Assembly: GCA_043821285.1 (NCBI GenBank)
Contig: JBDRCZ010000017.1
Span: forward strand, 15,947 to 79,946
Origin: Candidatus Omnitrophota bacterium
Lineage (GTDB): Bacteria; Omnitrophota; Gorgyraeia; B26-G9; JBDRCZ01
DNA: 64,000 nucleotides
Direction of reading: 5' to 3'
The first letter of the stretch is position 1. The number at the start of each line of letters is the position of its first letter. The notes beneath the pieces were generated by a model that saw nothing but the letters and a program-made list of their open reading frames with translations, did no database searches and was not told the DNA's origin. This document shows, piece after piece, positions 7,523 to 47,879 of the stretch. A program made the translations under genes and the position numbers.

Positions 7523-7528
7523 AAAAAA

Positions 7529-29832: not shown

Positions 29833-32820
29833 TTATATTGCTTGCTCTATAAATGTCAGGTTTTGGAATTGCGGTTTTGGAATTGCTGTTGTACTAGGGG
29901 GAAAATTAGGAAGTGGTGGATATCCAAAAAATTCTCTGGCAGTTGGATTTTGAATAGATTCAAAAGTAATCATACTTGGTGTCCCTCTATAAGTAGCTAT
30001 TTCTCCATTTAATTTTATTGTATTTTCATTATAATCATATGTAACAATTACCTGCAGTCTCTTACCTCTCTCTCCGCTTCTTGTGAGAACTAAGACGACA
30101 TTTAGTTCTGTAATTCTGCTTTGCATGGTATAAACTTGTATGCTTCCAATACTTTCAGGTATTTTAAGCTCTTTACTCCCAATTTTTTTACTCTCACTTA
30201 TAACTTCTTCTTCAATAATCTCTAAGCCTTCTGGCGCGTGAATTTCTCGTATCGCTTTCATCACTTCTTGCTTTAAATCTGGTGACAAATTTTGTACTAC
30301 TTCACTATTTTCTATAAATCTTATTTCCCTTGGATCAGTCCTCCGGCGTTCTTTGCCTTTTTTATCATCAAGTTCAAGAAATAGATATCCCCCGGTCGCG
30401 GAATTCCACGAAATCCTTGTTTGACCTTTATCATTGGCAGAAAAATTAATAGTAACATAGTTATTCGGACTGATTGTTAATATTGTTCCTTCACCAAATG
30501 ACGCGTGTTTCACCGTATCCCCTGCCCGCAATAGTGTTCCGTCAGGCAAAATAAGAGTAGGTCGAGCTAAGTTATTAATTACACTTCGTAACGCTATTTG
30601 TAGGTTTCCCTGGGAATTATTTTCAATATCAGGATAATTTTCAAAAAAGTCGTTTTGTGCCTTTTGTATTGCATTATAATGGCCTAATACTGAACAAATA
30701 GCTCCGTGATAGATGTATTCCTGGCGAATTAATGGATTATCCTGTTCACAAATTTGCCTTGATAACACTAAAGCCGGTTCAGGAAATAATTCGTTAAATT
30801 TCGCCTCACCTAAAATATTAATAATCTCTTGTTTTGTTTCTTCTGCATGTGAATAGAATTCAAGCACATAATCATCTTCTTGATTAAACACAACAGCATC
30901 AGTTACAATAATGCGTAATGGTATCTCACTTCCTGCAGTAGTATGCAAATACTTCCTTATTCTTTGTTCTATTTGTTCTATATCTTGCTTAAGATCATCA
31001 GTTTCATCGCGATACTGCCTATGGGAAAGATTATAGAGCATTTGTTTAAACGCACGGTCACCTTTGCGGATAAAGCCGCCTTCATTGTCTGTCGGATTAT
31101 TTTCTTTTGATCCTTCTCCTAATTCAGGAAGAAGGTGATATTGTTCAATTATTGCGGCTATTTCTTCAGGGTCATTTAGATTTCTGTTCCTAATTTTTTC
31201 ATAAACATCCGAATGCCAATTATCAATAGCATCACCTATAGCCTCATTTGACAACTCGCTACCTTGCGTTCGGGTAACTAAAAACATATACGATAATAAT
31301 GATAGTTTCATAGAATTTGGCAGAGTAGGTTCTTTGAGCATTTCTAATGGGGGTAACATACGGTTTTCTAAAACAGTTTTTACTTGTTCTGGAAAATCCT
31401 TCATAATAATAGGCCACAGCTTTAAAAAATTAACCAATGCTTCTTGATTTATTCTTTCAGGTGGAAACGCCTGGGAGTTTTTTTCAACTATTCTTTCTAT
31501 AAAATACAAAACTGCTCTGAGAGAGAAAATTTCTATGTTTGCATTTTGCGGAATTTCAACAGAAGAATTAACCCGTTCTCCATTAACAAGAATTATTGAT
31601 TTTTCAAAAGATAAGTCGTTTGCCTGGTATGTGGCTGAAATATAAGTAAGTAGTTCTGCTACAGTACTGCCTTTAGCAGGAATTCTAATTAATTCGTCAT
31701 TCCTACTGCCAATAAGTGAAGCAGAGATTCCTATTGTGTAAGGTAAAAGACAAACACTTATCCTTTCTTGATAAATTTGGCGTGTCTGTTTAGTTATAAT
31801 TATAGGTTTGCCAGCATTATCCCTTACTTCTACCCTACCCTCGTGTACGGCATGAAGAAGATTAAGAAAATCATCTGTGCTTTTAATTAAATTTTTATCT
31901 TTAGAAGCTAAATCATTCATAAGGCTAAGGGCATTAAGAAGATTTGCCCTATCATAAAGAGGAATCAAGCCTTCATTAATGCAGCGCTCGAGGTCTTCTG
32001 GTGTTTGAATAAATCTTGTATTAACATGAATCTCAAGTATCTTTTTAAGCGGGGCCCCGAGCGGTTCGTATTTACCAAAGATAAAGTTAAGCCCGCTTAT
32101 ATTATACATAGGAATATTCTTTGATATTCTAACTAAAGCATTACCGTATCCAATAAGACAGATTTTGGTCTCTTCAAAATCTTCTCTAGCGATTAAATCC
32201 TGAACCTGTATTAACCCCCTAAGCACCGCCTCTCTCCGAATATCTTGAATGTGTACTATTTCCTCGCGGATTTGCCGCATCGATCCTATCTTGCGCAAAA
32301 TTTGAGTTAATATTTTGGTATAAATTATAAAATGTAATAATTGGTCATCAGCTTCAACAATACCTTGTTTTTCCATTAAATACTGGATTAAAAATGCCCC
32401 ATGTTCAAACACATACTTGTCTTCATCAGAAACGCTATAAAATCTAACCAACCATTTATTAAGCGAACGCTTAAAAGACGATAAGGTATCAAAGCGTTGT
32501 ATAACATTTTTTGTTGCTAACAGGGCACTAAAGATAAGATTATGGATAATGTGACTAATGCCAGTTCTCTTGTTTTCTTGTAAAAGTTTATCAGCATCGA
32601 CTATTATTTTAGCTTCAGCAGATTCTTTTGCTAAAGTATCCGTTGCTTCGCCAGGATCACTAATATCTTTTGCAAAAATATCGCTATTTATGCTTAAGGG
32701 AGGGGCAAGATGGGTGTGTAGGCCTTTTAAATTGTTGCCGGCGGCCCAGGAGAGGTCGAGGCAGAAAAAAGCGTTAATTAGCATAATAACTGTTAGTTTA
32801 AACCAAATACTGCGTTTCAT
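29833..32820 (-). CDS. giant-array member A (995 aa): N-leader / C-terminal EQAI-tagged secreted or membrane protein
   Basis: N-term MKRSIWFKLTVIMLINAFFCLDLSWAAGNNLKGLHTHLAPPL; C-term ...NLTFIEQAI; no recognisable catalytic domain. Confidence 0.7.
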   Translation of the reverse strand: MKRSIWFKLTVIMLINAFFCLDLSWAAGNNLKGLHTHLAPPLSINSDIFAKDISDPGEATDTLAKESAEAKIIVDADKLLQENKRTGISHIIHNLIFSALLATKNVIQRFDTLSSFKRSLNKWLVRFYSVSDEDKYVFEHGAFLIQYLMEKQGIVEADDQLLHFIIYTKILTQILRKIGSMRQIREEIVHIQDIRREAVLRGLIQVQDLIAREDFEETKICLIGYGNALVRISKNIPMYNISGLNFIFGKYEPLGAPLKKILEIHVNTRFIQTPEDLERCINEGLIPLYDRANLLNALSLMNDLASKDKNLIKSTDDFLNLLHAVHEGRVEVRDNAGKPIIITKQTRQIYQERISVCLLPYTIGISASLIGSRNDELIRIPAKGSTVAELLTYISATYQANDLSFEKSIILVNGERVNSSVEIPQNANIEIFSLRAVLYFIERIVEKNSQAFPPERINQEALVNFLKLWPIIMKDFPEQVKTVLENRMLPPLEMLKEPTLPNSMKLSLLSYMFLVTRTQGSELSNEAIGDAIDNWHSDVYEKIRNRNLNDPEEIAAIIEQYHLLPELGEGSKENNPTDNEGGFIRKGDRAFKQMLYNLSHRQYRDETDDLKQDIEQIEQRIRKYLHTTAGSEIPLRIIVTDAVVFNQEDDYVLEFYSHAEETKQEIINILGEAKFNELFPEPALVLSRQICEQDNPLIRQEYIYHGAICSVLGHYNAIQKAQNDFFENYPDIENNSQGNLQIALRSVINNLARPTLILPDGTLLRAGDTVKHASFGEGTILTISPNNYVTINFSANDKGQTRISWNSATGGYLFLELDDKKGKERRRTDPREIRFIENSEVVQNLSPDLKQEVMKAIREIHAPEGLEIIEEEVISESKKIGSKELKIPESIGSIQVYTMQSRITELNVVLVLTRSGERGKRLQVIVTYDYNENTIKLNGEIATYRGTPSMITFESIQNPTAREFFGYPPLPNFPPSTTAIPKPQFQNLTFIEQAI

Positions 32821-33140
32821 ATTACATATATGCTTTCATTCTCGTATTGAGTATCGCGTATTAATGTTTTAAATTCGAAATCCGAATATCTAAATGTTTA
32901 GAATTTGCCATTCGTCATTATAAGTGTTTTATTTTATCTATCTAGTTGATCCTGTCTAATTCGTTCTCGTATTGCGTTTTTTTATTGTCGTCTACTTGTT
33001 TTTATACTCAATACTCGATACACAATACACAATGCGTTGTTTAATCATTTCTCTCCGTGTTCTCTGCGGCTCTGTGTGATAAATTTTAGCTTTTATTTTC
33101 TGTCTTCTGAATTCTGATTTCTGTTTTCTGCTGTTAACTG

Positions 33141-36100
33141 TTAGATTGCTTGCTCTGCTATAAATATATTAGGTACTGTTATTTCTCCGGCACTTGGTAT
33201 ATCTTCAAGTAATGTGTCCGGTGCAAATACATTTTCATTAGCAGGATTGGCTCTTGTGGCTATATCTTTAGCGTTTATAACACGTTGTGAGCGTCTGTCC
33301 TTATGAGCACTAGTGTCATTCGTTTCCTTTTGTAATTTTGCAAGAAGAACCGGATTATCTTTTATTTCACGGTGATTTTTGACGTTGGGAAAAAAACCTG
33401 TTGTCAGTTTTCTTGCGGCGGTTAAATCATCAACAGTTTGAATAATCATTCCTAATTCACCATTTAAATCTTCGCTATGAACAACACCAGCTTCTAATCT
33501 TACCTGCATGCCTAATTCTGAAATCACTTCATTAACTTTGATTTCGATCGCTTTCAAAGTAGCGGCAATTTTTTCCGAAGTAATTATCCCATCATCTTCT
33601 CTATAAGCTCCTGCAAATTGATTATAAACATTGTTATTAATTGATAGAATTACATCATTTCCAACATTGTGGCCAAATACATCATTAATAACCTTAAATC
33701 CAAAATGCAATTGTGCAAATTGTGCATCTCCATTTAAGTCTGTTTCTCTGTAAAACTCTCTGTTGCCGCTTGCTCTTATGAAATCATTTATATTTATGGA
33801 TGTAGAACTAACTATATAATGTGCTGATAGTTTTATCAGTTGTACACGGTTATTTTCTCTTTTTATAACGAGGTAGAACTTATCAGGCCGTTCATGTACA
33901 ATACTGATTGAAACAGCAGATTTGCCGTCTAAAATGTTTTGAATGGTTTTGCCCAACTTATCTCTTTCTATTACCGGGTAAAACTTGTCTAAATCTTCTT
34001 TCGAAATACCCGCATCTATCATTTCCTGACGTATTCTTTCTCCTTCAACTCCTAATTGAAATTTTTTATCGTCAGCTATTTTAATCGGTGATTTTCTCTC
34101 TTCGCGCTCAGGATCTGGGCGTTCGGATAATCCTATTCCTACTAACTTGTTGGCATATTTAGTCCTGCGCTGGGTGTATTCCGCCTCATCTCTAGCAATT
34201 CTTAGTTGTTCCAATAGACTCATTTGGGAAATATTAGGTATATCACTTATTTTTACTGCTCCTACCGGGGCAAAGGGAACATAAACAGGAAAATAAATCT
34301 TACCATTAATATCAATGTCAAGACATTTAAGATTAGCGAGTATCTCGGATAGAACAGTGTTTTCATCCTCTTCTACATCTTTAGTGAACAGTATAAATGT
34401 TTCCTTAGAAGCCTTTTCTTCTTCTGGCGTTAAAAATACTGATTTTGTGACCGTAGTAATGTTTCTTTTTTTATTTTCTCTTAATTTTTCTATCAACGCA
34501 TCTCTGTTACTATCATTTATATTTTTTAGGATTGCAAAAACGTATTTTCCTTCAATCCGTTCTATGACCTTGCGTTGAATTTGTACGAGAAAGTGCTCAA
34601 TAACTTCTTTTGGCAACATAGGTGGTAACAAACCAACAACCTCATCACCACTAACATGATAAACTGTTCTACCTCTTTCTTCAATTTCTTTACGAGCTGC
34701 CTCAATTAATGTGTTAATTGCAAGTATATTCACATTTTCCCAGCCATATACATCATTTCTACCCCTTAGTTCGCTGATGTCAAAGAATATCACCCAAGCA
34801 TTGTCGTCGTGTCTACCTAAAAATACCACTGCTTCTTTTTCCCATTTTTGTGCATTTTCTGGATAGGCTTCATTAAGAAAGTTTCTTACGCGTGTTGTAT
34901 TATCAAATAAAGTGGTTAAATACATTATAAACTCTTGCAGTTCGTTATAGGGTTCGTCAGTATCTTTTCTACTTAAAAGAACATCTATCACCTTAGTAGC
35001 CGCGTCCCTAAATTGCTGATCATTAATATTTTGGTTAATAATTTTTCTCCACTTCTCACCTAAACGCTTTATTTCAGCCTTCAGAAACATTTCTATTGCT
35101 TCCTCATCTTCGCCTTGTTCTTTACACCTATCTACTTCTAATATTACTTTTTCTACATCTGCGCCCAACTCAAAAGCAAAAAATTCCCCATCTCGTTCCT
35201 GACTGGAATTTTCTCTTGGCAAAATGCTTGCCATACCTAAGCTAAATGCTGCGATTAAACCTGCGGTTCCTCCTCCCATCCCTGATTGAAGCATTGATGC
35301 TGCGGAAAATTCTGGTTGAGATGGGAAATAACCAAGTGCTCGCATTAATGTTCCAATAGATGCTGCTAAAAGCACGATGGATATTTTAGGTTTATTTCCA
35401 AACCATGCAACTAACCTCCTAATTAGCGTACCTAACCTGTTCTCATGGGAAGGACTTTTGTTTAATGCCCTCCAACCAGTTGGATGCATAAATGCTACAT
35501 TAGTTGCTTTGCGTCTACGATGAAGAAGTCCGCTTATATTTGCAGGAAATATTATTTTTCTGCTTATCCACTTTTTTACCTCATAAGCAATATATATTAA
35601 TGTTAAAATTATGCCCAAACCAGGTATTACCATACAATCGCTAATAAAATTATTCCACTGTTTAACACGAGCATAACCTTCTCTTACAGTAAAACTATCA
35701 ATAAAAAACTCTTCTCCCATCGGTGGCATGATACCAAACTTAGCAATAAAATCTGCCTGGTTTTTAAATGCTTCTGTTGTTTCTGGATTGATATCAAAAA
35801 AAGGAATAACTAATCGAGCAATGTTAAAAATCAACGTTACTGGGTTATGTTTTATAAGAAATTCCATTGGGTTTTTAGGCAAATTATCGACATGATGACT
35901 TAAACGCACTAATGTAACAGCGTATTCAAAAATTCCTCGCTTAGTAAAGAAATTTAATCCAATATTAGGATTACCCCATGTTCCATTCCATCTTGAACCA
36001 TAGACAATATCAAAATTGCTTTCACGGATAGGTGGATTATTTGTCATAAGAATTTGGTAAGTTTCGGGAGAAACTAATTTTATCAAAAATAGCGCTGGTC

Positions 36101-39100
36101 CAATATGTTCTGCTCCTTCAGTTCCATCTCTTCGCTCAATAAAATCGTCCAACATGCCCGCAGCTTTATATTCATTGTAAAGTTTAATTACGGCTGTATC
36201 GATTTCCTGAGCTCTTTTTCGTGCTGTTGATTCTATAAATGATCCCGTGTTTTCATCAATTTTTGATGCAAGTGGAGAGTTTTGAAATGTTTCAATTAGA
36301 TTATGGAATTCATTTAAAGCTATTTGTAATTCTCCATTATTTTCTTGTAATGATACAGGTTGTGGTAATTCATTAAGTTTTAAACTGTCAGCTGGTGTTG
36401 GCTGTACTAATCCACTTTTTCCAACTGGTTCTAAAGATACAATGTTTAATGGTGCAGCAATTCCGATTGGTGCTAATATGGTCTGTGATCCGATAGCGAG
36501 GATAGTGAGTAAAGGCAATACTACCTTACGTGCAAAAGAGAAGTTAACACTGTGTTTAAAACCCCAGCCAAAAATAGCTAATCCTATCAGTCCTATTGCC
36601 GCAATTACAGCACCTGGCAAACCAAAAAATAACCCTGCAAACCCAATTGCCATAATTAACCCATCGATTGAAAGTGCTGTGGTTCCATTAGGTAACCTAC
36701 GGCTGGAATTATTATCCGGCGCAGTAATCTCTACATTATCTCCATGATTAAACGTCTGTTCTAAGTCTTCTACGCTTCTGGGCAAGCCGTTAACTTTTAA
36801 CACCAACTCCCCAGACTGGAGCATTTTTTGTGTGGTTAGGATGGCTTTGCGATTACGATCATTATAATAAGAAATCTGTGAAGTAATAGTCTTAATAAAT
36901 AAATATGCCAGCAGATCATAGATATTTGTTGCGGGAATCTGTTCTGCTGATATCAGTTCTCTAATACCATCTTGTTGACTATTACTGGCTTCTTTAGTTA
37001 TTGTTAATTGGATTAATGCTTTTTGTTCTTCTTCTTGCAATTTTTGAGTTTGCTGAGTTATTTCATCCTCTAAAAGAGCTAATCCAGCCCTATGCTGCTC
37101 TAAGATATCTTTTTCAGGATCAAATTCCCCTTCAGCACAAATTATTAACCCATTTGGCATAATATAGTAGACTATATTGAGATAGCCATGTGTGCTTTTG
37201 CCGATCATCAGTGAGTTTTTATTATTTAGCCAACCTTCGTACCTTTCCTTATGAAGCATAATTTGTTGGCTATGTGTATAATATCTTAACGTTGCATTAA
37301 TAAAACCTTGCGCATCGGCTTCCTCTTCTTTACGATAAGTAAGTGTTGTTCCATGCCCAATGAAACCATTTTTATAATGTTCAGGTAAGTTCTTCCATTC
37401 TTTGTTCAAACCACTTTCAATCCTTTGATGCAGTGATTTGTTTCCAGGAGCCGGTATGACACGTTCTGGCTCTGATGCTAATATCTCAAAGCTCGTGAAG
37501 GCATAAAAAATATTTTCTCTATCTGTCGCAATACCCATGCGTGTTTGACCCAAATTATCAGTTACTACCTGCCAGGTTGTTAATCCTATTTCTCGAGTAT
37601 ATGCAATTAGCGCCAGTTCGTATATTTCTTCTGTTAATAGTCCATCATTTACCATCCGCACAAAAAGCTTAAGAAATTCGTTGCTGTGATATATAAACCC
37701 GACCAATATTACTAAAGAAATTTTTCTTAATCTTTCTGTTGCGTTCTCTTCCTTTTTGAGTTTACAATAGATTGCTTCTATTGCAGTAACACAATCACTT
37801 TTGTATTCTGAGCCTATTGGATCGTCTTCTAACAAGATATTCCCTAATATCTGAACCGCGTATTCTGTTCCAATATCACCTAAAAGGTTTTTAACAGCCC
37901 TTAGGCGTAAGTAAAGCGGGTTAGTTTTATCATTCAACGCATTTGTCACAAGTTTTTCTGCAGGTTCACCAATTCCTCTTATAATCTCCTCACCAAGCAA
38001 AAGTAAGTTGGTTAAGTTCATATTAATTATATATCTATTTGGTTGTTGAATTAATGTTCTCATTCGCTTAATACAAGATTCAATCACATGTGCTCCCAAT
38101 ATCTCTTTCCTGCCAATTTCAACTAAATAGTCCTTTAAAAGTTCTTTTCTTATGTTAGCAAGCTCATAAGCTGAATGAAAAAATAAAATTATTAAACTAT
38201 CAGTTATTTTATCAACCATTTGTTTAATAATATTGTTTTGGTTTTCTGCTCTGGGATTTATTTTTAATGCATTGGCAATTTCAGTTATAAACTGTCTATC
38301 TCTATCTGATAATTCATCCTGTTGAATTCTATTGTATAAGACGAATAAATATCTTATAAAATAATTGAGTACCTCAATAACAGTTCTAAGAAAATCTAGT
38401 TCAGTTTCGTTAAATACTTCTTTTTTTTCAAATTTTTCCTGTGTCATTTGCTCAAATATTTCTTTTATCAATATAACCACTCGTATTTCATTACGTTCTT
38501 TAAGTATGTTAATAAGTAAACGTCTTATCCTCAGGTCAGAAGATTGAAGCACGTATTCTCTTATGTGGGGAAATGCCCGCTCGACAATATTACCTAACAC
38601 CGAAGAGGCAATTGTAACACGTGTTCCGCGATATATTAATCCCTGTTCACTTAATTCTGTAACAGCAGATTGAAGATTATCTTCTGATTTTTTTGCAATC
38701 TCCGTCAAAATATCAATAATCACATCTTGTTTTTTTTCTCCATGATCAAGCAGGTGCCGGATAGCTTTTACGCCAAACCCTTTAACCAAAATATCTTTAA
38801 TATCAGATGTTATTTCACGATCTTCACTATGAGCTGATAAGGCATCTGTTAAAAGGTCCATTGCCGTTGCAATTGTATCTTCATCTCTATTAGCAAATTC
38901 ACCAAGTTCAGCCATATTATCAGTACGTGAAGCGCGATCTCTATACGTAGCTAACTTATTAATCACATCCTGTATGTAAGCTCTCGTTGTACTATTATAA
39001 CTATTTCTATTGCTAAAATGCTTTGTTGTATCTTCTCCCGGATTGCCCCAATCTTGTAAACTAGAAAAAGGTAACTTTAATCCACCTATTCCGGCAAATG

Positions 39101-39581
39101 TCAGTTTAGGGTTTATGCATTGCCAAAATAAATAAACTACCCCTGTTATCATTAACAATACATAAGGATTATTAAAATAACCATGAGGTATATTAGAAGA
39201 TAAGGAAATAATTATTTGCTTAAGTGGGTATAAGATTGTGCTTAGCGGTATTATATTGCTTATTACCAACACAGAAAATATTGCTAAAGCAGTTATACCG
39301 GCAATATAAGCTAATGTTCTGAATCTGTTTAAAAAGATTGGTGATTCTGTTGTAGGTTGTTTTGTTGTGATGGTAGCTGGGGCATGAGGTGTCATTTTTT
39401 CTCCTGAAATTATGAAAGCATGTTCCGTTACGGAATTAGCTATTTGCAATTCAGGGGCAAGGTGGGTGTGTAGACCTTTTAGATTGCCGCCGGCGGCCCA
39501 GGAAATGTCCAGGCATAAAAAGGCATTGATTAATATTATGGAAATTAGTCTAAAATAAATTTTACGTGTTAAATTATTCAT
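33141..39581 (-). CDS. giant-array member B (2146 aa): leader, HEAT-like repeats, multiple internal TM bundles, EQAI tail
   Basis: N-term MNNLTRKIYFRLISIILINAFLCLDISWAAGGNLKGLHTHLAPEL; PBS-lyase/HEAT-like LRLRAVKNLLGDIGTEYAV; TM clusters mid-protein; C-term ...NIFIAEQAI. Confidence 0.7.
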   Translation of the reverse strand: MNNLTRKIYFRLISIILINAFLCLDISWAAGGNLKGLHTHLAPELQIANSVTEHAFIISGEKMTPHAPATITTKQPTTESPIFLNRFRTLAYIAGITALAIFSVLVISNIIPLSTILYPLKQIIISLSSNIPHGYFNNPYVLLMITGVVYLFWQCINPKLTFAGIGGLKLPFSSLQDWGNPGEDTTKHFSNRNSYNSTTRAYIQDVINKLATYRDRASRTDNMAELGEFANRDEDTIATAMDLLTDALSAHSEDREITSDIKDILVKGFGVKAIRHLLDHGEKKQDVIIDILTEIAKKSEDNLQSAVTELSEQGLIYRGTRVTIASSVLGNIVERAFPHIREYVLQSSDLRIRRLLINILKERNEIRVVILIKEIFEQMTQEKFEKKEVFNETELDFLRTVIEVLNYFIRYLFVLYNRIQQDELSDRDRQFITEIANALKINPRAENQNNIIKQMVDKITDSLIILFFHSAYELANIRKELLKDYLVEIGRKEILGAHVIESCIKRMRTLIQQPNRYIINMNLTNLLLLGEEIIRGIGEPAEKLVTNALNDKTNPLYLRLRAVKNLLGDIGTEYAVQILGNILLEDDPIGSEYKSDCVTAIEAIYCKLKKEENATERLRKISLVILVGFIYHSNEFLKLFVRMVNDGLLTEEIYELALIAYTREIGLTTWQVVTDNLGQTRMGIATDRENIFYAFTSFEILASEPERVIPAPGNKSLHQRIESGLNKEWKNLPEHYKNGFIGHGTTLTYRKEEEADAQGFINATLRYYTHSQQIMLHKERYEGWLNNKNSLMIGKSTHGYLNIVYYIMPNGLIICAEGEFDPEKDILEQHRAGLALLEDEITQQTQKLQEEEQKALIQLTITKEASNSQQDGIRELISAEQIPATNIYDLLAYLFIKTITSQISYYNDRNRKAILTTQKMLQSGELVLKVNGLPRSVEDLEQTFNHGDNVEITAPDNNSSRRLPNGTTALSIDGLIMAIGFAGLFFGLPGAVIAAIGLIGLAIFGWGFKHSVNFSFARKVVLPLLTILAIGSQTILAPIGIAAPLNIVSLEPVGKSGLVQPTPADSLKLNELPQPVSLQENNGELQIALNEFHNLIETFQNSPLASKIDENTGSFIESTARKRAQEIDTAVIKLYNEYKAAGMLDDFIERRDGTEGAEHIGPALFLIKLVSPETYQILMTNNPPIRESNFDIVYGSRWNGTWGNPNIGLNFFTKRGIFEYAVTLVRLSHHVDNLPKNPMEFLIKHNPVTLIFNIARLVIPFFDINPETTEAFKNQADFIAKFGIMPPMGEEFFIDSFTVREGYARVKQWNNFISDCMVIPGLGIILTLIYIAYEVKKWISRKIIFPANISGLLHRRRKATNVAFMHPTGWRALNKSPSHENRLGTLIRRLVAWFGNKPKISIVLLAASIGTLMRALGYFPSQPEFSAASMLQSGMGGGTAGLIAAFSLGMASILPRENSSQERDGEFFAFELGADVEKVILEVDRCKEQGEDEEAIEMFLKAEIKRLGEKWRKIINQNINDQQFRDAATKVIDVLLSRKDTDEPYNELQEFIMYLTTLFDNTTRVRNFLNEAYPENAQKWEKEAVVFLGRHDDNAWVIFFDISELRGRNDVYGWENVNILAINTLIEAARKEIEERGRTVYHVSGDEVVGLLPPMLPKEVIEHFLVQIQRKVIERIEGKYVFAILKNINDSNRDALIEKLRENKKRNITTVTKSVFLTPEEEKASKETFILFTKDVEEDENTVLSEILANLKCLDIDINGKIYFPVYVPFAPVGAVKISDIPNISQMSLLEQLRIARDEAEYTQRRTKYANKLVGIGLSERPDPEREERKSPIKIADDKKFQLGVEGERIRQEMIDAGISKEDLDKFYPVIERDKLGKTIQNILDGKSAVSISIVHERPDKFYLVIKRENNRVQLIKLSAHYIVSSTSININDFIRASGNREFYRETDLNGDAQFAQLHFGFKVINDVFGHNVGNDVILSINNNVYNQFAGAYREDDGIITSEKIAATLKAIEIKVNEVISELGMQVRLEAGVVHSEDLNGELGMIIQTVDDLTAARKLTTGFFPNVKNHREIKDNPVLLAKLQKETNDTSAHKDRRSQRVINAKDIATRANPANENVFAPDTLLEDIPSAGEITVPNIFIAEQAI

Positions 39582-40421
39582 AAGTTAATAGCCTATCAGT
39601 TAATTCCAAATGTTCCGCCTATCAAACCGGCGGACAGGCAAATAATAAAATCCAAATGACAAATGAATCATTTAATATCTCAATCTAAAAATCAAAATGA
39701 TATATTAAAATTCAAATATTTTTCTCTTTGACAGGATTTACAGGATTAACATGATTTTTTATCCAGTTAATCCTGTCTATTTTCTTATTTTCTCTGTGAA
39801 CTTTGTGTTCTCTGTGGTTATAAATTTTTTTATTTTTTTTAATCGTAATACTCAATACATGCTACTCAATACGCATTACTTTTTATAGTGTGCTCTCTGT
39901 GGTTAAAATATTTTTTGTTTTTTTATCTACATAATCATCCGTATTCTACGCTCTCTTTTATATGCACTATTTTCATTACAATCATACATATTGTAACCGC
40001 TAATAATTACAATCTGTTAAATATATTTATAACAATTTTAATATATACAAGTAAAGTATACCATATTTTTCTGATTTTTCAAGGATTTTGCTAAAAAAAT
40101 ATAGAAAATAACAGATTAAAAGATTCAGGTGATCACGGTTTTAAAACAGTATCAAGGCATTATTTATAACTTATTTATTTATAATATATTATAAAATAAT
40201 TATCGAATATGCCTACATGTTAATTATTCGTGAAATTCGTGTAATTTGTTGTTTAAAAATAAGCAGTTAAAGTTTTTCTTTGTGTGATAAATTTTATTTT
40301 TTACCGCAGAGAAAATCTAAAAGAAATCTCGTTCACAGATGTATGTAAGTTACATCCACTTTCTATTCTTAGTGCGTTACGTAAACGGTAAACTGCCTGC
40401 CTCCCGTTAGGGAGGTAAACT

Positions 40422-40446
40422 AAAAAATTGCCATAGGCAATTTTTT
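40422..40446. terminator. palindromic A6-TTGCC-ATA-GGCAA-T6 terminator (bidirectional in form) at 3' end of member C, overlapping its stop codon
   Basis: AAAAAATTGCCATAGGCAATTTTTT; second hairpin CCTCCCGTTAGGGAGG at 40400-40415. Confidence 0.5.
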
Positions 40447-43400
40447 AAATTGCCCGTTCAATTTCAAACAAATCTGCTATCTCTCTCTTCTCCAGTTTTG
40501 TATCTGATCCATTTATGCCTACCCTATAGCCAGTGTGTCTTTCTTGGGGAGCAACTATTAGAGAATAAAGAGCGTGTAGTAACAGCATATCAGAATCAGA
40601 AATATGAGGGTCTATATTTTTTGCTTCTAATATTGATTCATCATCGCTTATTATTTCTTGTATAATTGTTTTTACTATATCTCTATCTTCAGCTCTGCAT
40701 TTTTCATGAATTGCATTCAGACATTGTTCAAAAAATGGTCTGAGCATCATAAGCTGAACATTATCTTCTTGTGTATATGCATTGGCAACTGCTTTTGTAA
40801 CTGTTTCTAAAACAGTTTGCCGGTAATCTGGTCTTACCGTATAGATATTATCAAAAAAGATAAAAGTCCCGGCTGCGGCTTGTGGCATTATTGTCTTGTT
40901 TAGTATCTCATTAATAACATTTCGAGGAAAATATACTAAAATACTTAATAATTTATCTATTGTAGTATTACTTGGGGTTAAACCTTGCTGCTGGATCAAC
41001 TCTTGATATTTTCTTCCTATGATTCTATGCATAGATTCAAGACTTCTTCTATTTGCATTTATCATTAAATTATTTCCTTTAACTGCTGTAACTAAGTCCG
41101 TTAATTCGCTTCGTATCATTTCTCGTTCTTTCTCAAATACATCCGTATCTTCGTTCCTCTGAGATATAAATAACCCTAAAAATTCAAGTTCTAATGCTTT
41201 TTTAAAGGCATCTTCCGAAGTAAATGCGTTTAATCTAACAGTAATATTTTCTAACAACATTAGCTCAAAGCTGGTACCTTGACGAAAAATATGTTTTAGA
41301 AATTTTTCTGCATTAGTAAATTCGGGTGAAAAGATGATTTCTCCACTGACACCATCTACTGTTTTCTCCATCACTTCATTTATCAAATTACCTACTGAAT
41401 CTAAGTTGTGAAACTCGTTTAATCTATTTTCATCTTGTATAACAGCTCTTAAATAAACCTCCATTCTTAAAAGGTAATCAGCCAAAAAAACACCATCAAT
41501 TGCAAAACGTATATTTTCATTCGTATCTTGAGTTCTTGCAGTCAAGGCTTGATAAAGAAAATCATCTATATCGGTCAACATTCTATAAAAGATTTCCATT
41601 GCTGTTTCCTTATCCTGTTTTAGAGCAAGTTCGAGGACATTATTAACATTTGAAAAATCTCGTGAAATATACTCCTTAATTACATCACATAACGCATTGA
41701 ACAGTGGTTTTTTATCACGACGGTAAATAGCAAAACTTAGCCTAATAAATGCTGCTAATATCTCATGGGAATTAAATCCTGAATTTATTAAATAACTTTG
41801 CTCCTTTTCTATATAGATTGGTATAATTTTAGAAACGTCATATCCCGCAATAACTGTGTAAGCAACTGCAGCAAAAATAAGATTATGTGTTTCTGCATCA
41901 TGTTTAGGAATGTTTATTCGTTGTAAGATTTCTCCTAATACTTCTCCTGCCTCAGTAGTTCTCTCCTCTTTTCCTTCAATCTGCGCTTTTATTTTATTAG
42001 TAAAAAATTCAAAAACAAAATCAGGTTCTGCCTTAAGATACGCTTCTATTGTTTCCCAATCTGCTGCTAATAAATTACGCAGTTTTTGGATTTTATCTTG
42101 AACCACGATTAAGTTATTTCGTAGATTGCTTATTTTTTTCTGATTTTTTCTCGTTTGTTTTTGCTCTTTGTTTATGGTTTGCTGAATAGTTCTTTCATTG
42201 CTTTGGCGACGATTAAGTGCCTGCGTCCTTGTAATAACTCCTTCTAAGAGGATTGTTACTTCAGAGAGTTTTTCTCTACGCGCTTTTACTGCCGGGGGCA
42301 TATCTAAAAGTAGAGGTTCCCTTGTTGTCACTGGAGCCTGCCATGCTGGAAGTTCTTCAGATGCTACTTGCATAGCAGCAGCGCCTTGAAGGACCTGAGG
42401 ATATAATGAATGTTTTTGCATTGGGTCTTCAACTAACATAAGCTCACAACTTTGAGGCGGTTTGAGAGCATTAATTCTATTTTGGATAACTACTCCCAAT
42501 CCCCAAGCCCATTCTGCTTGACTTTTATATAAATCAACTAAGGCTTCAATATCCTCACTTTCGTTTATAATTGCGGTTATTCTCTCTACCAGAGGAGCCC
42601 GGCTGTTTCTGTTAGGATAGGTATTAAGCATTTGATATAATTCAGGTATATTACTTAAATCATTATAACCGAGTAATCTTTTTCTCAGTACCTCTGCTAT
42701 TACCCCCCTTATTTGCTTACATCCGTAGGTATATTTATTTATAGAATTATCTGTAAGTAAACGAAGCAGGTTTTCGATATCTAAGGAAAACACTTGCCTG
42801 ATAATACCGAAAATAATATATATTTCTACTTCAGAGTGAATTTTTTTACTAAGTAAATTAGCTAATGCAGCAAGTGCCTCGCCCCCCCATTTACTAACCA
42901 TCTCCTGAGCAATAGCTTGAGCTTGTGTTTTGTCATTATTTTCTGCTTGCTGACGTTTAAATCTATCGGAAATTGCGGTTAATCGTTCAATGCCATCTTC
43001 AATCGAAGAAACAGTTAGGTGTATTTCTGATATTTTTCCTTGAGAAGCAATACTATTACTTAATTGTGCGGCTGCTGCTTGCTTTGTTTTCTGGGGTAAC
43101 CTTGGATTTCGTGACCACTCTGAAAGCAAGCGATCATTTACTTCTGCTAATCTTTTTGCAGTGCTTAACGCCTTAATTCTATACCAAAGATAATTATTCC
43201 AGTATTCATCGTCCCATTCTTGGCTTAGATACACATCAACTAAGGCAACAATATCTTGATTATTTTTTATTATATGTTTCATCCTTCTTCTTGCCAGATC
43301 TTTAATGTCTTCGTTCGGACATAATGTTTCATTATTAATAACATAATATAATGCAGAAATACTTGTTACGTTTCGAGGAATGCTAACAGTTTTTATGATA

Positions 43401-46400
43401 ATTATGCTTTTAATCATACCTCTGGTAACTTCAGCTCCTTTAGTTTCTTGCTGATTCATCGCAGTATATAAATAAAATATTTCTGTAACAGACATTGAGT
43501 TAAGACAATTACCAAGTGCCGACATAGTTATTTCTATTGCTTCTTCATTAAGAAGATTCGTATCAATTTGCTCAGCAAATTGTTTAATAATTTCTAAAAA
43601 CTCATCTTTATCCTTTGTGTTATACATTTCTGTTATAATATTTTTAACTTCTTGAGGAGCGGATGCAATAAAGGCTTGTATTTCTTCGGGTGTCTGATAA
43701 TAATCAGCCAACTCTTTCTCCAGCTTTTCTATTTGTGACGCAATTGTCGTATCTAGTTCTGGTTTATTAATTCGCAGCCACTCTATTATTCTTTTTCTTA
43801 CTGTCCGATCTTGGATGCCAATCAATAATCCTAGTACATGCACTACCTCGTTTTCTAAACACATGTATTGTGACAAGATGTCGTTAAGTTCCGTATTCGC
43901 TGCATTGCTAAAGAATAGGTATATAGTACCAGCAATATGTTTTTGTATGCCCGTAAGTCTAAGGATTTTTTCACTCAAAATATTTCTTATGCTCGAACCC
44001 CAGCTTCTTTCTAAATATAATTCTACTGCTGTCTTTAAATTATCACATTCATTAACCAGTTCTCTTATTCTCATCCTTAGCAGTGCCCGGGTTCCTTCAT
44101 GGTACTCTCTATCATTGAGCAAATCTTGCAGTGGTTCGATACTAGCAATGCCTTGATATTCAGCAAGGCGCTGTTTGATCGCTTCTATTAATTGACTACT
44201 ATTGTCCCCATGATTTAACCTACGCAATAGTTCCTCTAAGGTGAGAGTTTTTATGGGGTCAAAATCTGCTAGTAGTTCTGCAAAAGTTACTTGATTATCA
44301 GAAGGCGCTGCAACTTCTCTTGTCGGGGGGGCATCCCTGTTGGTGTCGGCTCTTTGATTAGCGTTTCGCCATGCTGCTCTTAAGGCACGTGTATCTGACT
44401 GTGATGGTGGCTCTGGAAAATGTACCACCTGAGCTGCATTCGACGGAGCTGTTGTTCGTACAAACCTATCTGGAGGGGATAGTGATAGATCGAAAGCAGC
44501 TGCTAGTTTTTCTAATGAGTTTAGAGTCAAAGGGTTATTGTTTCCTGATGGAGGAACTGTATCTTTTGGTAAAGCAACTTCTGCTGTGTCAGTCCCTTCC
44601 TTTTCTGGTTGTCGCAAGTCACCTGATTGTAATGGTACGGTGTATGCTTGAGGGTTATTTTCTTTTTCCCTTTCCCTTTTCCTTTTCTTTCTTGCAATAG
44701 GAGGACTATCTGCTCTATATTGTTTACGTGCTTTCCTTTTCATTAATACAACTTTATCTTCTTCTTCATCATCATCATATTGGTCACTATCATCTATTGC
44801 ATTTATTAACTCCTCTATTATGAGCATTAAAGCAATCCGTATATTTTCTTCTGATAATTCACCCGAACCCTCTTGCATCAATTGCTCAATTTCTTCCTCT
44901 GACAAAGTTAAATCGTTTATAACACCAATGAGCTGTTCAATGATTTGACCATTCTCGTGTGCGCTTTCAATTATATTATCTATAGCATCTTTTAACGCTT
45001 CATGATATGTATCTTCATCAAGTAGTAAATAAGTTTTTACTAAAAAACTAAGATCTATTTCTAAAGCACTATTTCTCGTTGATCTTACGCCGGTACTACC
45101 AAGCAAGCATAGTAAACTAAATCCCCAAGCCAACCCCTTCCAAATAAAAAATGCCAGTGCATCTGGTCTTGCGGCAACAAAGTGTACTACTGGATATAAT
45201 AATCCTTCATGTCGTGCAAGAGAATTTATGATTGTAAATTCGATGTAGTCGATAATAATGAGCATAGCTGATTTAGCACCAGTAACCGCCTTTTTAACTA
45301 ATTCCCAAACATTTGGTATAAATTGTATCTGCGGTTGTATATATAAAGGAAAGGTCATTATTAAGGAAAGACCTAATATAGCGTGTATTGGTAAATGCCC
45401 TAAGTTTACACTAACCGGGATGCCCGTGATATTACTGATTACCTCTAATATAAAAGGTGCAATCAATAATAAAAAGAGGCCATTTATTAATGGATGGGAA
45501 TTCAGGGTAACACTCTTACCAGCATTACTTTCTTGATAAAATTCTCTTACCGCTCTATTTGTTTTTATTAAAGCACGTAAATCAATAATGATATTTCCAT
45601 TTCTATCTTTACGAAGGTCATGTTTATTTTCCTTGTCAGATAAAAATATCTTATCATCTTCTTTCACAATTTTATATTCCACGTTACCAATCCAAATAAT
45701 ATCATTTTCCCTGAAAGTTACTTCTTTCCTTAAAATATCAATGATTAATTCCTTGCTGTTTGCTTCGTTACGCAGAAGAATAGTATTACCAGCTATTGCA
45801 TATTTTGTATTATCTATCATTCTGTCTTGATGCCACCATGCTATTCTGAGTTTGTAACCATCACCCTTTCCCTCAGTTTTTATTTTTTTTAGACCATCTG
45901 TTGGGAAAAATTCTAACCGTTCTCGTAAACGCTGGATTTTAGTATTGTATTGTCTTATATCTAAAATTCGCTTGTTATGAATGTTCTGAATTACAGCTAA
46001 TAACTCGTTGTCCTTAATACTTGCTAATAATGCGCCATAAAAGGCCAGACCTAAGCTATCTACTCTTAAAACTATTCTTTCTATTTCTGTGTGTTTGTTT
46101 TTGTTAAATAGAGTTGTTAAATAATTAGCCAATATCAGTACAAATTCCCCGCCCCACCACTTTATAACCTCAACCAATTGACCAAGAGACTGCGGTGTAA
46201 TATTTTGATGTTCATTCAGGAGATTTTCAATAATTTGTAATACTGCAGAAACTGAATATACACCAAATTGTTCGGCCAAAGCTTTGATTATTGCCAATCT
46301 TTGCGTTTCATCAAAATTATTAAGATTAGCTTCTTTTTCTTTCATCATCTTAATATAATTTTCGGCTGAATCCCAATCTTGAGTAGACTTATTAGTATCC

Positions 46401-47536
46401 CAATACTGTACTGGTTTGCGATACACTGCTTTTGCTGCTACTAATATATTTTTTTCTTTCTCTGTAAGTGCGGTGTCATCATTTGTCCATATCCTAATCA
46501 TTCCGTGTCTTGGTGCTGTTATATAAAATGAAATTTTTGACGCAAGAAACTCTTCCCATTCTTCTGGAGAAGGCACAGTTGATAAATCAGCACGTAAACG
46601 TATAAAACGGTTATAGTTTTTATTTTCGTTATTAATTATGTCTGCCGGAAGCAGCCGCCGGCCAACATGAATTTCTATATTAGAGTTTTCTGGTATTGGT
46701 TGGGTATAACGGCTTCGATCAGGGGTTGAAACATTCCAGTAGTTTTGTGTTGATATACCAAATCTCAAAGATTCGTTATCTATTTTTATGCTCTCGGGAG
46801 CAAAAAACATCATCATAATTGCATGCGCAGGTAAACGTATTGCATCAATCCAGTAGTGAATTCCTTTACGATAACTATACTCAAGGATAATTTTAATACC
46901 ACGTTCAAACAGAACTTTTAATCCGGGTAAAAAGGCAATATTATTAAATACGCTGTTGGTATTTAATCTAAAGACTTCCATATCCCTGGGGACAGTAAGC
47001 ACTATTCGCGGAGACGCACCTTTAATATCTATTTTTCCATAAGTAGTAATTTCACTTTGCAAATCACGCGCCAACCCAAGCAAACTTAGAAAGTCAATTT
47101 CTTTTAGAACCGGGGGTATTCTTTCAACCGTCTCATCATCTGGACAAGGTATTTCTGGAATTTCCCTAATATTTAATTGATTGTTTTTTTTAGAAATTAC
47201 ATAAGAACGTTGTTTACCAGCTGCGCCTGTTGTTACAAACAATACTATCGAACCATCATTCGCAAATCTTTTCTCGCATGCATCAAACTCAAACTTATCT
47301 TTAATATAACTTACGCCAACATGTCCTTCTGCCCAAGTATATGCATCACTTATTTTTTTGTAAAGCATAATATTTTCTGCAAATAGAGGGTCATTTACTT
47401 CCAAAGGCGGGGCAAGATGGGTATGTAGACCTTTTAGATTGCCGCCGGCGGCCCATGAGATGTCTAAGCATAGAAAGGCATTGATTAATATTATGGAAAT
47501 TAGTCTAAAACAAATTGTACGTGTTAAATTATTCAT
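40445..47536 (-). CDS. giant-array member C (2363 aa): leader, TM bundle, basic/acidic low-complexity region, C-terminal module paralogous to member F, EIERAI tail
   Basis: N-term MNNLTRTICFRLISIILINAFLCLDISWAAGGNLKGLHTHLAPPL; RKKRKREREKE basic stretch; ~450-aa alignment with F; C-term ...DLFEIERAI. Confidence 0.7.
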   Translation of the reverse strand: MNNLTRTICFRLISIILINAFLCLDISWAAGGNLKGLHTHLAPPLEVNDPLFAENIMLYKKISDAYTWAEGHVGVSYIKDKFEFDACEKRFANDGSIVLFVTTGAAGKQRSYVISKKNNQLNIREIPEIPCPDDETVERIPPVLKEIDFLSLLGLARDLQSEITTYGKIDIKGASPRIVLTVPRDMEVFRLNTNSVFNNIAFLPGLKVLFERGIKIILEYSYRKGIHYWIDAIRLPAHAIMMMFFAPESIKIDNESLRFGISTQNYWNVSTPDRSRYTQPIPENSNIEIHVGRRLLPADIINNENKNYNRFIRLRADLSTVPSPEEWEEFLASKISFYITAPRHGMIRIWTNDDTALTEKEKNILVAAKAVYRKPVQYWDTNKSTQDWDSAENYIKMMKEKEANLNNFDETQRLAIIKALAEQFGVYSVSAVLQIIENLLNEHQNITPQSLGQLVEVIKWWGGEFVLILANYLTTLFNKNKHTEIERIVLRVDSLGLAFYGALLASIKDNELLAVIQNIHNKRILDIRQYNTKIQRLRERLEFFPTDGLKKIKTEGKGDGYKLRIAWWHQDRMIDNTKYAIAGNTILLRNEANSKELIIDILRKEVTFRENDIIWIGNVEYKIVKEDDKIFLSDKENKHDLRKDRNGNIIIDLRALIKTNRAVREFYQESNAGKSVTLNSHPLINGLFLLLIAPFILEVISNITGIPVSVNLGHLPIHAILGLSLIMTFPLYIQPQIQFIPNVWELVKKAVTGAKSAMLIIIDYIEFTIINSLARHEGLLYPVVHFVAARPDALAFFIWKGLAWGFSLLCLLGSTGVRSTRNSALEIDLSFLVKTYLLLDEDTYHEALKDAIDNIIESAHENGQIIEQLIGVINDLTLSEEEIEQLMQEGSGELSEENIRIALMLIIEELINAIDDSDQYDDDEEEDKVVLMKRKARKQYRADSPPIARKKRKREREKENNPQAYTVPLQSGDLRQPEKEGTDTAEVALPKDTVPPSGNNNPLTLNSLEKLAAAFDLSLSPPDRFVRTTAPSNAAQVVHFPEPPSQSDTRALRAAWRNANQRADTNRDAPPTREVAAPSDNQVTFAELLADFDPIKTLTLEELLRRLNHGDNSSQLIEAIKQRLAEYQGIASIEPLQDLLNDREYHEGTRALLRMRIRELVNECDNLKTAVELYLERSWGSSIRNILSEKILRLTGIQKHIAGTIYLFFSNAANTELNDILSQYMCLENEVVHVLGLLIGIQDRTVRKRIIEWLRINKPELDTTIASQIEKLEKELADYYQTPEEIQAFIASAPQEVKNIITEMYNTKDKDEFLEIIKQFAEQIDTNLLNEEAIEITMSALGNCLNSMSVTEIFYLYTAMNQQETKGAEVTRGMIKSIIIIKTVSIPRNVTSISALYYVINNETLCPNEDIKDLARRRMKHIIKNNQDIVALVDVYLSQEWDDEYWNNYLWYRIKALSTAKRLAEVNDRLLSEWSRNPRLPQKTKQAAAAQLSNSIASQGKISEIHLTVSSIEDGIERLTAISDRFKRQQAENNDKTQAQAIAQEMVSKWGGEALAALANLLSKKIHSEVEIYIIFGIIRQVFSLDIENLLRLLTDNSINKYTYGCKQIRGVIAEVLRKRLLGYNDLSNIPELYQMLNTYPNRNSRAPLVERITAIINESEDIEALVDLYKSQAEWAWGLGVVIQNRINALKPPQSCELMLVEDPMQKHSLYPQVLQGAAAMQVASEELPAWQAPVTTREPLLLDMPPAVKARREKLSEVTILLEGVITRTQALNRRQSNERTIQQTINKEQKQTRKNQKKISNLRNNLIVVQDKIQKLRNLLAADWETIEAYLKAEPDFVFEFFTNKIKAQIEGKEERTTEAGEVLGEILQRINIPKHDAETHNLIFAAVAYTVIAGYDVSKIIPIYIEKEQSYLINSGFNSHEILAAFIRLSFAIYRRDKKPLFNALCDVIKEYISRDFSNVNNVLELALKQDKETAMEIFYRMLTDIDDFLYQALTARTQDTNENIRFAIDGVFLADYLLRMEVYLRAVIQDENRLNEFHNLDSVGNLINEVMEKTVDGVSGEIIFSPEFTNAEKFLKHIFRQGTSFELMLLENITVRLNAFTSEDAFKKALELEFLGLFISQRNEDTDVFEKEREMIRSELTDLVTAVKGNNLMINANRRSLESMHRIIGRKYQELIQQQGLTPSNTTIDKLLSILVYFPRNVINEILNKTIMPQAAAGTFIFFDNIYTVRPDYRQTVLETVTKAVANAYTQEDNVQLMMLRPFFEQCLNAIHEKCRAEDRDIVKTIIQEIISDDESILEAKNIDPHISDSDMLLLHALYSLIVAPQERHTGYRVGINGSDTKLEKREIADLFEIERAI

Positions 47537-47855
47537 ATGTTAATACCCTGTTAGTTAATTCCAAATGTTCTAATTCAAGATTTAAAAATTCCAAGATTCC
47601 AGATTCTAAAATTATAAAATTCCCCGCTACAAGGTCGAAGATCCGCCATCGTATTAGTGAAGAACGCTGGCGAACAGGCAAATTCTCTAACCTTCGGCAA
47701 GTAAAACGTTTTGAATCGTTAAATCTTAAAATATTCAAATTTTGGAATTGTTTGTTTTATTCTTCTGTCTTCTATTCTCTACCTTCTGTTTTCTGCTTTC
47801 AATCAGCTGTATCAGTAAACGGTAAACTGCCTGCCTTCCATTAGGGAGGTAAACT

Positions 47856-47879
47856 AAAAAATTGCCGCAGCAATTTTTT
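47856..47879. terminator. palindromic terminator at 3' end of member D
   Basis: AAAAAATTGCCGCAGCAATTTTTT; adjacent CCTTCCATTAGGGAGG. Confidence 0.5.

Follow-up and report, generated by a model that had tools for sequence, protein, structure and literature searches.

Shared 5' ends in an array of long Omnitrophota genes: selection on a leader peptide and one old DNA-level event between neighbours

Why should neighbouring genes with unrelated coding sequences begin almost alike? The question is raised by a 64,000-nt stretch of contig JBDRCZ010000017.1 (assembly GCA_043821285.1) from a Candidatus Omnitrophota bacterium, hereafter the window. It contains six head-to-tail genes on the minus strand, A to F, each consisting of a leader, an unrelated cargo and a short tail. 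NCBI names the array proteins 'Candidatus Omnitrophota bacterium' (locus tags ABH952_01580 to _01605), and the best matches of the DnaE protein encoded in the window are from Omnitrophota metagenome-assembled genomes (MAGs), with 57–65% identity. An earlier note on this DNA had attributed the similarity of the leader-coding 5' ends either to ongoing gene conversion or recombination, as in antigenic-variation families, or to strong selection on an mRNA- or DNA-level signal. Our analysis shows instead that the family-wide similarity is kept mainly by purifying selection on the peptide, and that a clear DNA-level signal of common ancestry remains in a single pair of neighbours.

Leader-coding DNA, synonymous sites and flanks

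A repeat search of the window returned exactly five leader copies, in genes A to E, and the DNA-level comparison within the source genome covers these five (ten pairs). B and C are identical at 124 of 138 positions over codons 1–46 (90%), and blastn extended the match to a tract of 162 nt with 92% identity (−33 to +128, counted from the ATG; 13 differences, E = 9e-60), so that the similarity reaches 33 nt into the non-coding 5' untranslated region (UTR) and ends abruptly on both sides. Beyond codon 46 the identity is 33%, and the B and C cargo proteins gave no blastp match at E < 1e-5, in agreement with the earlier description of 5' ends about 90% identical, followed by unrelated coding sequence. 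The same had been said of D and E, which is an overstatement, because they are 77% identical over codons 1–46 (106/138), although their best stretch (+25 to +122) reaches 85.7% over 98 nt. The eight other pairs show 65–73% identity over codons 1–46. Near-identity is hence not a property of all or most members; only B–C reaches 90%, with the remaining pairs at 65–77%.

To separate constraint on the protein from constraint on the DNA, we compared how often the same codon is used at identical amino acids with the frequency that codon usage in the window would predict. B and C share 31 of 38 codons versus 14.3 expected (P = 6e-9), D and E 21 of 35 versus 14.6 (P = 0.015), and A and B 18 of 29 versus 11.7 (P = 0.009), whereas codon sharing in the seven other pairs was at chance (P 0.08–0.38). 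In a control with the homologous cargo of C and F, sharing was 0.51 observed against 0.46 expected. Synonymous divergence (dS), calculated with the Nei–Gojobori method (NG86), was 0.35 for B–C, 0.82 for A–B, 1.16 for A–C, 1.47 for D–E and around 2 or saturated for the six remaining pairs; it was at least 0.8 or saturated, then, in nine of the ten. Non-synonymous divergence (dN) of the five leaders was 0.05–0.26, with dN/dS values of approximately 0.06–0.25. We also examined three independent arrays from other genomes, L081 (a Logan assembly), L082 (GCA_004196255.1) and L083 (JGI 3300033148), whose leaders are strongly diverged and show codon sharing at chance in 26 of 28 pairs.

Among 27 full-length leaders of the source MAG (351 pairs, 42 positions), the median identity is 25/42 residues. 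B–C (39/42) and D–E (36/42) are the two most similar of all pairs, and both join neighbours with unrelated cargo. Neighbour pairs have a mean identity of 29.9/42, versus 24.4/42 for all pairs, and leaders of cargo-related pairs, such as P0004 with P0023, show merely ordinary similarity. Since synonymous sites are at chance in most pairs, and no conserved RNA structure was found (see below), these results show that leader similarity across the family is maintained mainly by purifying selection on the peptide. DNA-level signal of common ancestry remains only in B–C and, weakly, in A–B, A–C and D–E. Synonymous sites as diverged as elsewhere, which the earlier note had named as the outcome that would contradict it, are what most pairs display; likewise, the ongoing homogenisation that it envisaged does not agree with a dS of 0.35 already present in B–C, nor with codon sharing at chance in seven of the ten pairs of the window and in 26 of the 28 from the other arrays.

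The flanks of B–C bear a further mark of recombination. The block at −61 to −26 of B is 94% identical to E (59063–59097) and could not be aligned to C, and the identity between B and E is still 88–92% further upstream. Smith–Waterman scores over −200 to −27 were 61 for B with E, 58 for B with D and 25 for B with C, with a null maximum of about 30. The leader of B thus groups with C whereas its upstream region groups with E and D, indicating incongruent relationships, with a breakpoint in B near −30, at a shared ACATTT. Excess synonymous and non-coding identity combined with an incongruent flank was found for B–C only. These results show that the B–C tract derives from one discrete DNA-level event, which joined a C-type leader to a D/E-type upstream region; it could have been a short-tract gene conversion or the duplication and transplantation of a 5' module, and the dS of about 0.35 indicates that it was not recent. 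Recombination, as proposed earlier, is therefore borne out for B–C by the 31 of 38 shared codons, the non-coding extension and the mosaic flank, and is marginal for D–E and A–B. The pattern agrees with an occasional exchange or duplication of 5' modules among nearby genes, rather than with continuous homogenisation.

Other boundary modules of the array are also shared, in a mosaic fashion. In the 3' flanks of C and D, 65 nt (40381–40445 versus 47815–47879) align with 89% identity, and blastn gave 96% over 52 nt; every array gene has its own upstream region, with a terminator-like hairpin right after five of the six genes (not B). The C/D flank, which is non-coding, is conserved at least as well as the B–C leader tract (92%), and contains a second hairpin, CCTCCC-TAAC-GGGAGG, plus GTTTACC repeats.

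A 12-bp palindrome, GCCGCCGGCGGC, had been reported for A, B and C. Among the leaders of the window we found it in B and C only, since A has GCCGCCGGCAAC and it is also missing from D and E. It corresponds to the codons GCC GCC GGC GGC, for A-A-G-G, in a genome with a GC content of 36%. As the B–C tract contains both copies, they represent one evolutionary event and not two.

The leader peptide and its C-terminal tail

The shared start of the six proteins is M..K..I.F(K/R)L..IILINAFLCLDISWAA(G/N)xNLKxLxTHLAPPL, within a leader of about 45 residues. In B, this leader can be read as an n-region, MNNLTRKIYFR, a 13-residue h-region, LISIILINAFLCL, and a c-region, DISWA, with a likely cut after A29. 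The N-terminus of F lies beyond the window and bears the leader MNNLTRTIWFRLIAIILVNAFFCMDISWAAGG....

A word-index protein search with the 56-aa leader, as well as leader-pattern scans of GTDB genomes and JGI metagenomes, gave no match. The family emerged from a query with the full-length C protein and from an exhaustive search of 1.84 billion representative proteins with a profile built from the five leaders. The profile matched 67 cluster representatives, in every case at the N-terminus (residues 1 to ~50), in proteins of 67–6278 aa. From the source MAG came 22 further matches, with membership judged by ABH952 tags or a contiguous MFH177... accession series; together with the array genes these amount to about 28 leader proteins in one genome. 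Others were from other Omnitrophota MAGs and assemblies. Compact tandem arrays of three to seven leader/tail genes are present in L081 (3000–17335), L082 (1373–14191) and L083 (9456–36112). That of L082 is directly downstream of a PilZ gene, an Avd-like gene and a SecA-domain giant gene (6877-aa product), and both L082 and L083 continue into MFS and GH2_C genes.

The general form of the leader is K/R - ΦΦΦLI[NQ][AS]FLxLDI[AS]WA then [AG]GG ... L[AS]PxΦxI, with positions counted over 68 aligned leaders. Most of these have K/R at aligned positions 9–11 and 17, and all members checked show a Kyte–Doolittle peak of 1.8–2.5 at residues ~4–31. The −3/−1 rule is satisfied, with A at −1 in 63/68 and A or S at −3 in 56/68, followed by [AG]-G. 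Conservation is high at F16 (59/68), K/R17 (64/68), L23 (64/68), F28 (66/68), D32 (65/68), W35 (60/68), A36 (63/68) and L69 (65/68), and is unusually strong at F16, L23, I24, N/Q25, F28, D32 and W35. A spacer of variable length (8–20 residues) separates this part from a further motif, L-[AS]-P-x-[LIV]-x-I...F...F, which in the array takes the form NLKGLxTHLAPPL. A single-sequence AlphaFold2 model of the minimal member, P0025 (152 aa), had a mean pLDDT of 43.6, with a moderately confident helix at residues 3–28, and was uninformative on contact between leader and tail.

No Pfam or NCBIfam model matches the leader. We discarded a twin-arginine (Tat) signal because the leaders lack an RR motif, and a class III prepilin because they lack G-F-T-L-x-E; a lipoprotein was also rejected, because the Cys in F-L-C-L-D has L at −1 and is present in only 28/68 leaders. 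The MAG also contains short, tail-less leader open reading frames (ORFs), namely P0009 (67 aa), P0010 (118 aa), P0011, P0017 and P0022, some of which adjoin full-length members (P0010 is next to P0021, for instance); either gene truncation or stray 5' modules could account for them. An origin of giant genes by fusion of array members was rejected, since we found only one weak internal leader match (P0030, residues 258–288, i-E 0.008).

All six array proteins end in ...[IV]E[QR]AI and, within the window, only these six. The tail consensus is Φ(−7)-x-Φ(−5)-[VI]-E-[QR]-[AS]-I-COOH, without a transmembrane (TM) segment. Of 69 representatives, 43 end in [AS]I, and the 26 exceptions are mostly short (17 of at most 310 aa) or annotated as partial. 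By comparison, [AS]I occurs in 23 of 1529 background Omnitrophota ORFs (1.5%) and the fuller pattern in none of them. The tail is also present on all 14 complete leader-bearing genes of L081, L082 and L083. NCBIfam scans of the whole A, B, C and F proteins, including tails, showed no match to a sorting tag. The tail is thus tied to the leader and matches no known model.

The cargo is diverse. D contains transketolase N-terminal, pyrimidine-binding and C-terminal domains; E has an S-adenosylmethionine (SAM) methyltransferase domain, a weak phosphoribosyltransferase match (below the Pfam cut-off) and a faint HAD-type match; and the C-terminal third of C is homologous to F. Other members from the MAG carry PGK, guanylate kinase and methyltransferase domains, or are annotated by NCBI as S2P-family and AAA-domain proteins, and those of other genomes include radical SAM, PPDK, ROK, PHP, CofD, HATPase and HEAT. 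The leader is the sole hydrophobic segment in A, E, P0025, P0052 and P0056, and other members have several.

Explanations for the shared leaders

We consider it likely that the repeats encode an export-type leader peptide under selection at the peptide level, overlaid by one old DNA event between B and C. From its sequence, the leader looks like a signal peptide of the Sec/signal peptidase I (SPase I) type followed by a conserved mature motif. Several observations weigh against this reading. Leader cleavage and export are deduced from anatomy of the sequence, and we identified no cognate machinery gene or sortase-like partner in the window, which is the genome DNA analysed. The DNA tests for the source genome cover five leaders out of about 28. 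Much of the cargo is normally cytoplasmic (transketolase, PGK, PPDK, radical SAM and SAM methyltransferases), which is odd for Sec-exported proteins. Additionally, codons 21–48 are rich in GC at third positions (GC3) in A (15/27), B (13/27) and C (11/27), as compared with ~6.7 predicted from the codons that the cargo uses for these amino acids; the enrichment is less marked in D and E, and L081 and L083 do not show it. This patch could result from repeated GC-biased conversion or codon-level selection, invisible to the pairwise test, and also from a rare-codon pause or common ancestry, and is a residue that the favoured explanation leaves unexplained. Rare codons are also common to all five leaders, such as CTA at L12 and ACC at T39.

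The GC3-rich codons of A, B and C, the palindrome within a 36% GC genome, and the CTA and ACC codons found in all five leaders could alternatively reflect selection on a nucleic-acid signal in the leader-coding region, be it mRNA structure, translation control or a DNA site such as the palindrome, as could the motif ATTTGCCTGTC and weak hairpin that precede B, C, D and E. However, A, D and E lack the palindrome; RNAalifold analysis of −40 to +135 detected no credible conserved structure (consensus −6.4 kcal/mol, covariation term +0.12); Rfam has no match at the leaders, its sole match in the window being a tRNA at 973–1044; the upstream hairpins fold better than shuffled sequences in D alone (single-sequence z-score −2.8, against −0.1 to −1.1 in the others); codon sharing is at chance in most pairs; and L081 and L083 lack the GC3 effect. 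Such a signal, the other cause suggested by the earlier note, is thus very improbable, with the lack of covariation, the lack of an Rfam match and the missing palindromes all speaking against it. We also regard as unlikely an ongoing concerted evolution, in which frequent gene conversion would homogenise the 5' cassette as in Mycoplasma vsp/vlp or Neisseria pilE/pilS. It would account for the sharp limits of the B–C tract and its mosaic upstream region, for the greater likeness of neighbouring leaders, for the GC3-rich patch and for the short leader-only ORFs P0009 and P0010, which could be donor remnants. Yet synonymous sites are at chance in most pairs, both in the window (seven of ten) and in the other arrays (26 of 28), even B–C has a dS of 0.35 and 13 differences in 162 nt, and the median leader identity among the 27 paralogs is 25/42. 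Moreover, each gene has its own upstream region, with a hairpin directly after five of six; the cargo consists of enzymes and not of repetitive surface antigens; and neither a homopolymer or simple sequence repeat (SSR) switch nor an invertible element was seen in the window, where Tandem Repeats Finder showed only short intergenic repeats of 7–9 nt in 2–5 copies. Finally, the partial members P0004 and P0020 end in the same 14 residues, suggesting contig breaks at repeats, and the B–C identity might accordingly be ascribed to a mis-assembled or collapsed repeat. We give this hardly any weight, because the copies differ at 13/162 positions, both are in frame with long intact ORFs, the flanks of B and C differ on both sides, and NCBI annotates both as complete on an 86-kb contig.

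The main functional rival takes the leader as a permanent N-terminal membrane anchor or assembly helix that tethers multi-enzyme proteins, and the tail as a protease/PDZ-type recognition or degradation tag. It agrees with the cytoplasmic-type cargo (transketolase, PGK, PPDK, radical SAM, methyltransferases) and with the extra TM segments of many members; conserved polar residues in the h-region (N/Q25, D32) suggest specific helix–helix recognition; and the 2026 preprint 10.64898/2026.06.07.730766 predicts a signal peptide plus TM segments, or TM segments only, for 85% of long Omnitrophota proteins. Conversely, the h-region after K/R17 has only ~13 residues and is followed by D-I-[SA]-W-A and [AG]-G, in a textbook −3/−1 site for SPase I with A at −1 in 63/68. 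The positive charges are N-terminal of the helix, which would leave the cargo outside whether or not the leader is cleaved, and in A, E, P0025, P0052 and P0056 hydrophobicity is confined to the leader. On balance, we hold an anchor to be possible but rather doubtful.

If the leader is indeed of the export type, it would direct Sec- and signal recognition particle (SRP)-dependent translocation across or into the inner membrane, with AWA or SWA as the probable site after which SPase I would cut. A lineage-specific machinery might then read the tail and the motif at the mature N-terminus, with a later step at the tail, such as onward sorting, surface retention, processing or delivery; leader and tail together would constitute a lineage-specific two-signal sorting module. 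Tentatively, we propose that they represent an undescribed sorting system of a subset of Omnitrophota, with dozens of substrates per genome, which exports or displays cytoplasm-type enzymes and whose 5' modules are occasionally transplanted between neighbours. If so, the exported enzymes, including kinases, may work on, or inside, a host or prey cell, and moving a 5' module (UTR plus leader) to a neighbouring gene would be one way to recruit new substrates. Omnitrophota are uncultured, ultra-small and probably host-dependent bacteria.

Comparison with known systems places the module apart from each of them. Like YSIRK-G/S, ESPR and KxYKxGKxW, the leader is a Sec-type N-terminal signal whose sequence is conserved across unrelated passengers; unlike them, its motif is unrelated, has no Pfam/NCBIfam match and comes from an uncultured Omnitrophota lineage, and it is coupled to a mature motif, a C-terminal tail and cytoplasm-type enzyme cargo. 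In combining a signal peptide with a C-terminal tag on dozens of paralogs per genome that are otherwise unrelated and often lie in clusters, the module recalls the type IX secretion system (T9SS), PEP-CTERM/exosortase, LPXTG/sortase and GlyGly-CTERM/rhombosortase, whereas the tail described here has ~8–12 residues with a free carboxylate (-E-Q-A-I) and lacks a TM helix, a basic cluster and a β-sandwich domain. Membership in these two-ended sorting systems or in YSIRK/ESPR thus fails, because there is neither a profile match nor a TM-plus-basic or C-terminal-domain (CTD) tag. Loading peptides of encapsulins and bacterial microcompartments are similarly short, terminal, joined by a flexible linker and found on diverse metabolic enzymes, but such cargo does not have a signal-peptide-like N-terminus, and the proteins here are of 1–6 thousand residues; no shell gene occurs among the scanned neighbours in the window.

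In Mycoplasma vsp/vlp/vsa and Neisseria pilE/pilS, too, clustered paralogs share their 5' end (UTR plus signal peptide) and differ in the remainder. In these and similar variable-antigen families, all members typically have a nearly identical 5' cassette, which is coupled to a switch (a poly-A/SSR tract, an inversion or silent cassettes). Here, in contrast, most pairs are at 65–77% and saturated at synonymous sites, and the window contains no recognisable switch, such that the resemblance to antigenic variation is superficial. At the nucleotide level the phenomenon is ordinary: a paralog family under protein constraint plus one old recombination footprint. Its interest lies in the conserved leader being paired with the -EQAI tail on ~28 large multi-enzyme proteins of one genome and recurring in other Omnitrophota arrays, a signature that bears on how the huge multi-enzyme proteins of this phylum are targeted. 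It can be used for listing substrates in any genome, for phylogenetic profiling of the machinery and for designing export fusion tests.

The array proteins share several features with the long and giant Omnitrophota proteins of West-Roberts et al. 2023 (bioRxiv 10.1101/2023.11.21.568195) and of the 2026 preprint: the phylum, predictions of a signal peptide and/or TM segments, several enzyme domains per polypeptide, and a common repertoire of PPDK_N, Radical_SAM, HAD, GGDEF, methyltransferase, HATPase and AAA. Likewise, L082 and L083 adjoin PilZ genes, and L082 also the SecA-domain giant gene, as in the neighbourhoods described for Omnitrophota giant genes. Unlike the giants reported there, of at least 10 thousand residues, members in the window have 995–3205 aa, and the largest of the family 6278 aa. 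The term-matched passages of both papers contain neither a conserved leader nor an -EQAI tail, and searches of the literature on Omnitrophota giant genes and for the leader/tail motif strings found no description of either. The module is thus apparently undescribed, and belongs with the known phenomenon of long, multi-enzyme Omnitrophota proteins that bear signal peptides or TM segments.

Features of the array and minor observations

Coordinates of the array and of the surrounding features are given in Table 1. The reading frame of F is open to the edge of the window, and the TTG at 63891 (1310-aa ORF) is not its real start.

Table 1. Positions of array genes, leader elements and other features in the window
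Feature	Position	Strand	Remarks
Gene A	29833–32820	−	995 aa; leader 32695–32820, three residues shorter; tail ...IEQAI
Gene B (ABH952_01580)	33141–39581	−	2146 aa; leader; TM segments, weak GGDEF-like match; tail ...AEQAI
Gene C (ABH952_01585)	40445–47536	−	2363 aa; leader 47402–47536; tail ...IERAI
Gene D	47878–53553	−	1891 aa; leader 53419–53553; tail ...VEQAI
Gene E	55311–59036	−	1241 aa; leader 58902–59036; tail ...VEQAI
Gene F (ABH952_01605)	59959–64000, runs past window end	−	full NCBI protein 3205 aa; tail ...IEQAI
Putative signal peptide of B, codons 1–29	39495–39581	−	from sequence reading, family consensus and Kyte–Doolittle peak
Mature N-terminal motif of B, AGGNLKGLHTHLAP(P/E)L, codons 30–45	39447–39494	−	
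Tail codons and stop of B (...IAEQAI*)	33141–33167	−	
Tails of other genes	A 29833–29859; C 40445–40471; D 47878–47904; E 55311–55337; F 59959–59985	−	
B–C tract, B copy (−33 to +128)	39454–39614	−	proximal 5' UTR and codons 1–43; blastn
B–C tract, C copy	47409–47569	−	blastn
D–E similar stretch	D 53432–53529; E 58915–59012	−	blastn
Palindrome	B 39486–39497; C 47441–47452	.	codons A29 A30 G31 G32 of B
GC3-rich patch	A 32677–32760; B 39438–39521; C 47393–47476		codons 21–48
5' UTR block of B (−61 to −26)	39607–39642	−	motif ATTTGCCTGTC and hairpin CCGCC-N9-GGCGG
Motif ATTTGCCTGTC	39633–39643; 47673–47683; 53610–53620; 59088–59098	−	at most 1 mismatch
Terminator-like hairpin AAAATTGCC-TAT-GGCAATTTTTT	40422–40444	−	directly after C stop
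Hairpins of like design after other stops	D 47855–47877; E 55288–55310; F 59936–59958	−	compensatory change in F
Hairpin and tail-codon spans	40422–40454; 47855–47881; 55288–55320; 59936–59968		
DnaE gene	7529–10969		
DDE-type transposase gene	53922–54986	+	between D and E
IS200-like Y1 transposase	27148–27954	−	just beyond A end of array
58-nt repeat inside D	48392–48449; 49910–49967		copies 83% identical
Heptamer repeats CAATACT/AGTATTG	7458–7528; 29593–29636; 33000–33042; 39837–39879; 59385–59499		intergenic

The stop-proximal terminator hairpin is common to C, D, E and F; the hairpin that follows A differs from it (TTTTTTGTC-TTA-TGACAAAAAA). In the four genes that share it, the 5' arm (AAATTGCC) can pair with the 3' arm and also with the last codons, (G)GCAATTT(AA), which specify A-I-stop; because the arm is complementary to two partners, two alternative hairpins are possible. 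Upstream, the motif ATTTGCCTGTC is located 62–147 nt before the ATG of B, C, D and E, and is followed by the weak hairpin, GCCUGUC...GGCGGG. A scan for sigma-70 promoters and terminators yielded 85 hits, no better than shuffled sequences (76.8 ± 8.3), and a σ54 promoter upstream of B was ruled out by its wrong spacing, as judged from the sequence.

Two transposase genes are associated with the array, one of the DDE type on the opposite strand between D and E and an IS200-like one at the A end. Two stretches of D each match transketolase C-terminal Pfam models which, together with the internal 58-nt repeat, suggests an internal duplication of the enzyme module. One set of the CAATACT/AGTATTG heptamers is directly upstream of dnaE, and their orientation relative to the downstream gene varies; beside them there are other intergenic repeats of 7–9 nt, TTTCTGA and ACAGGATTT.

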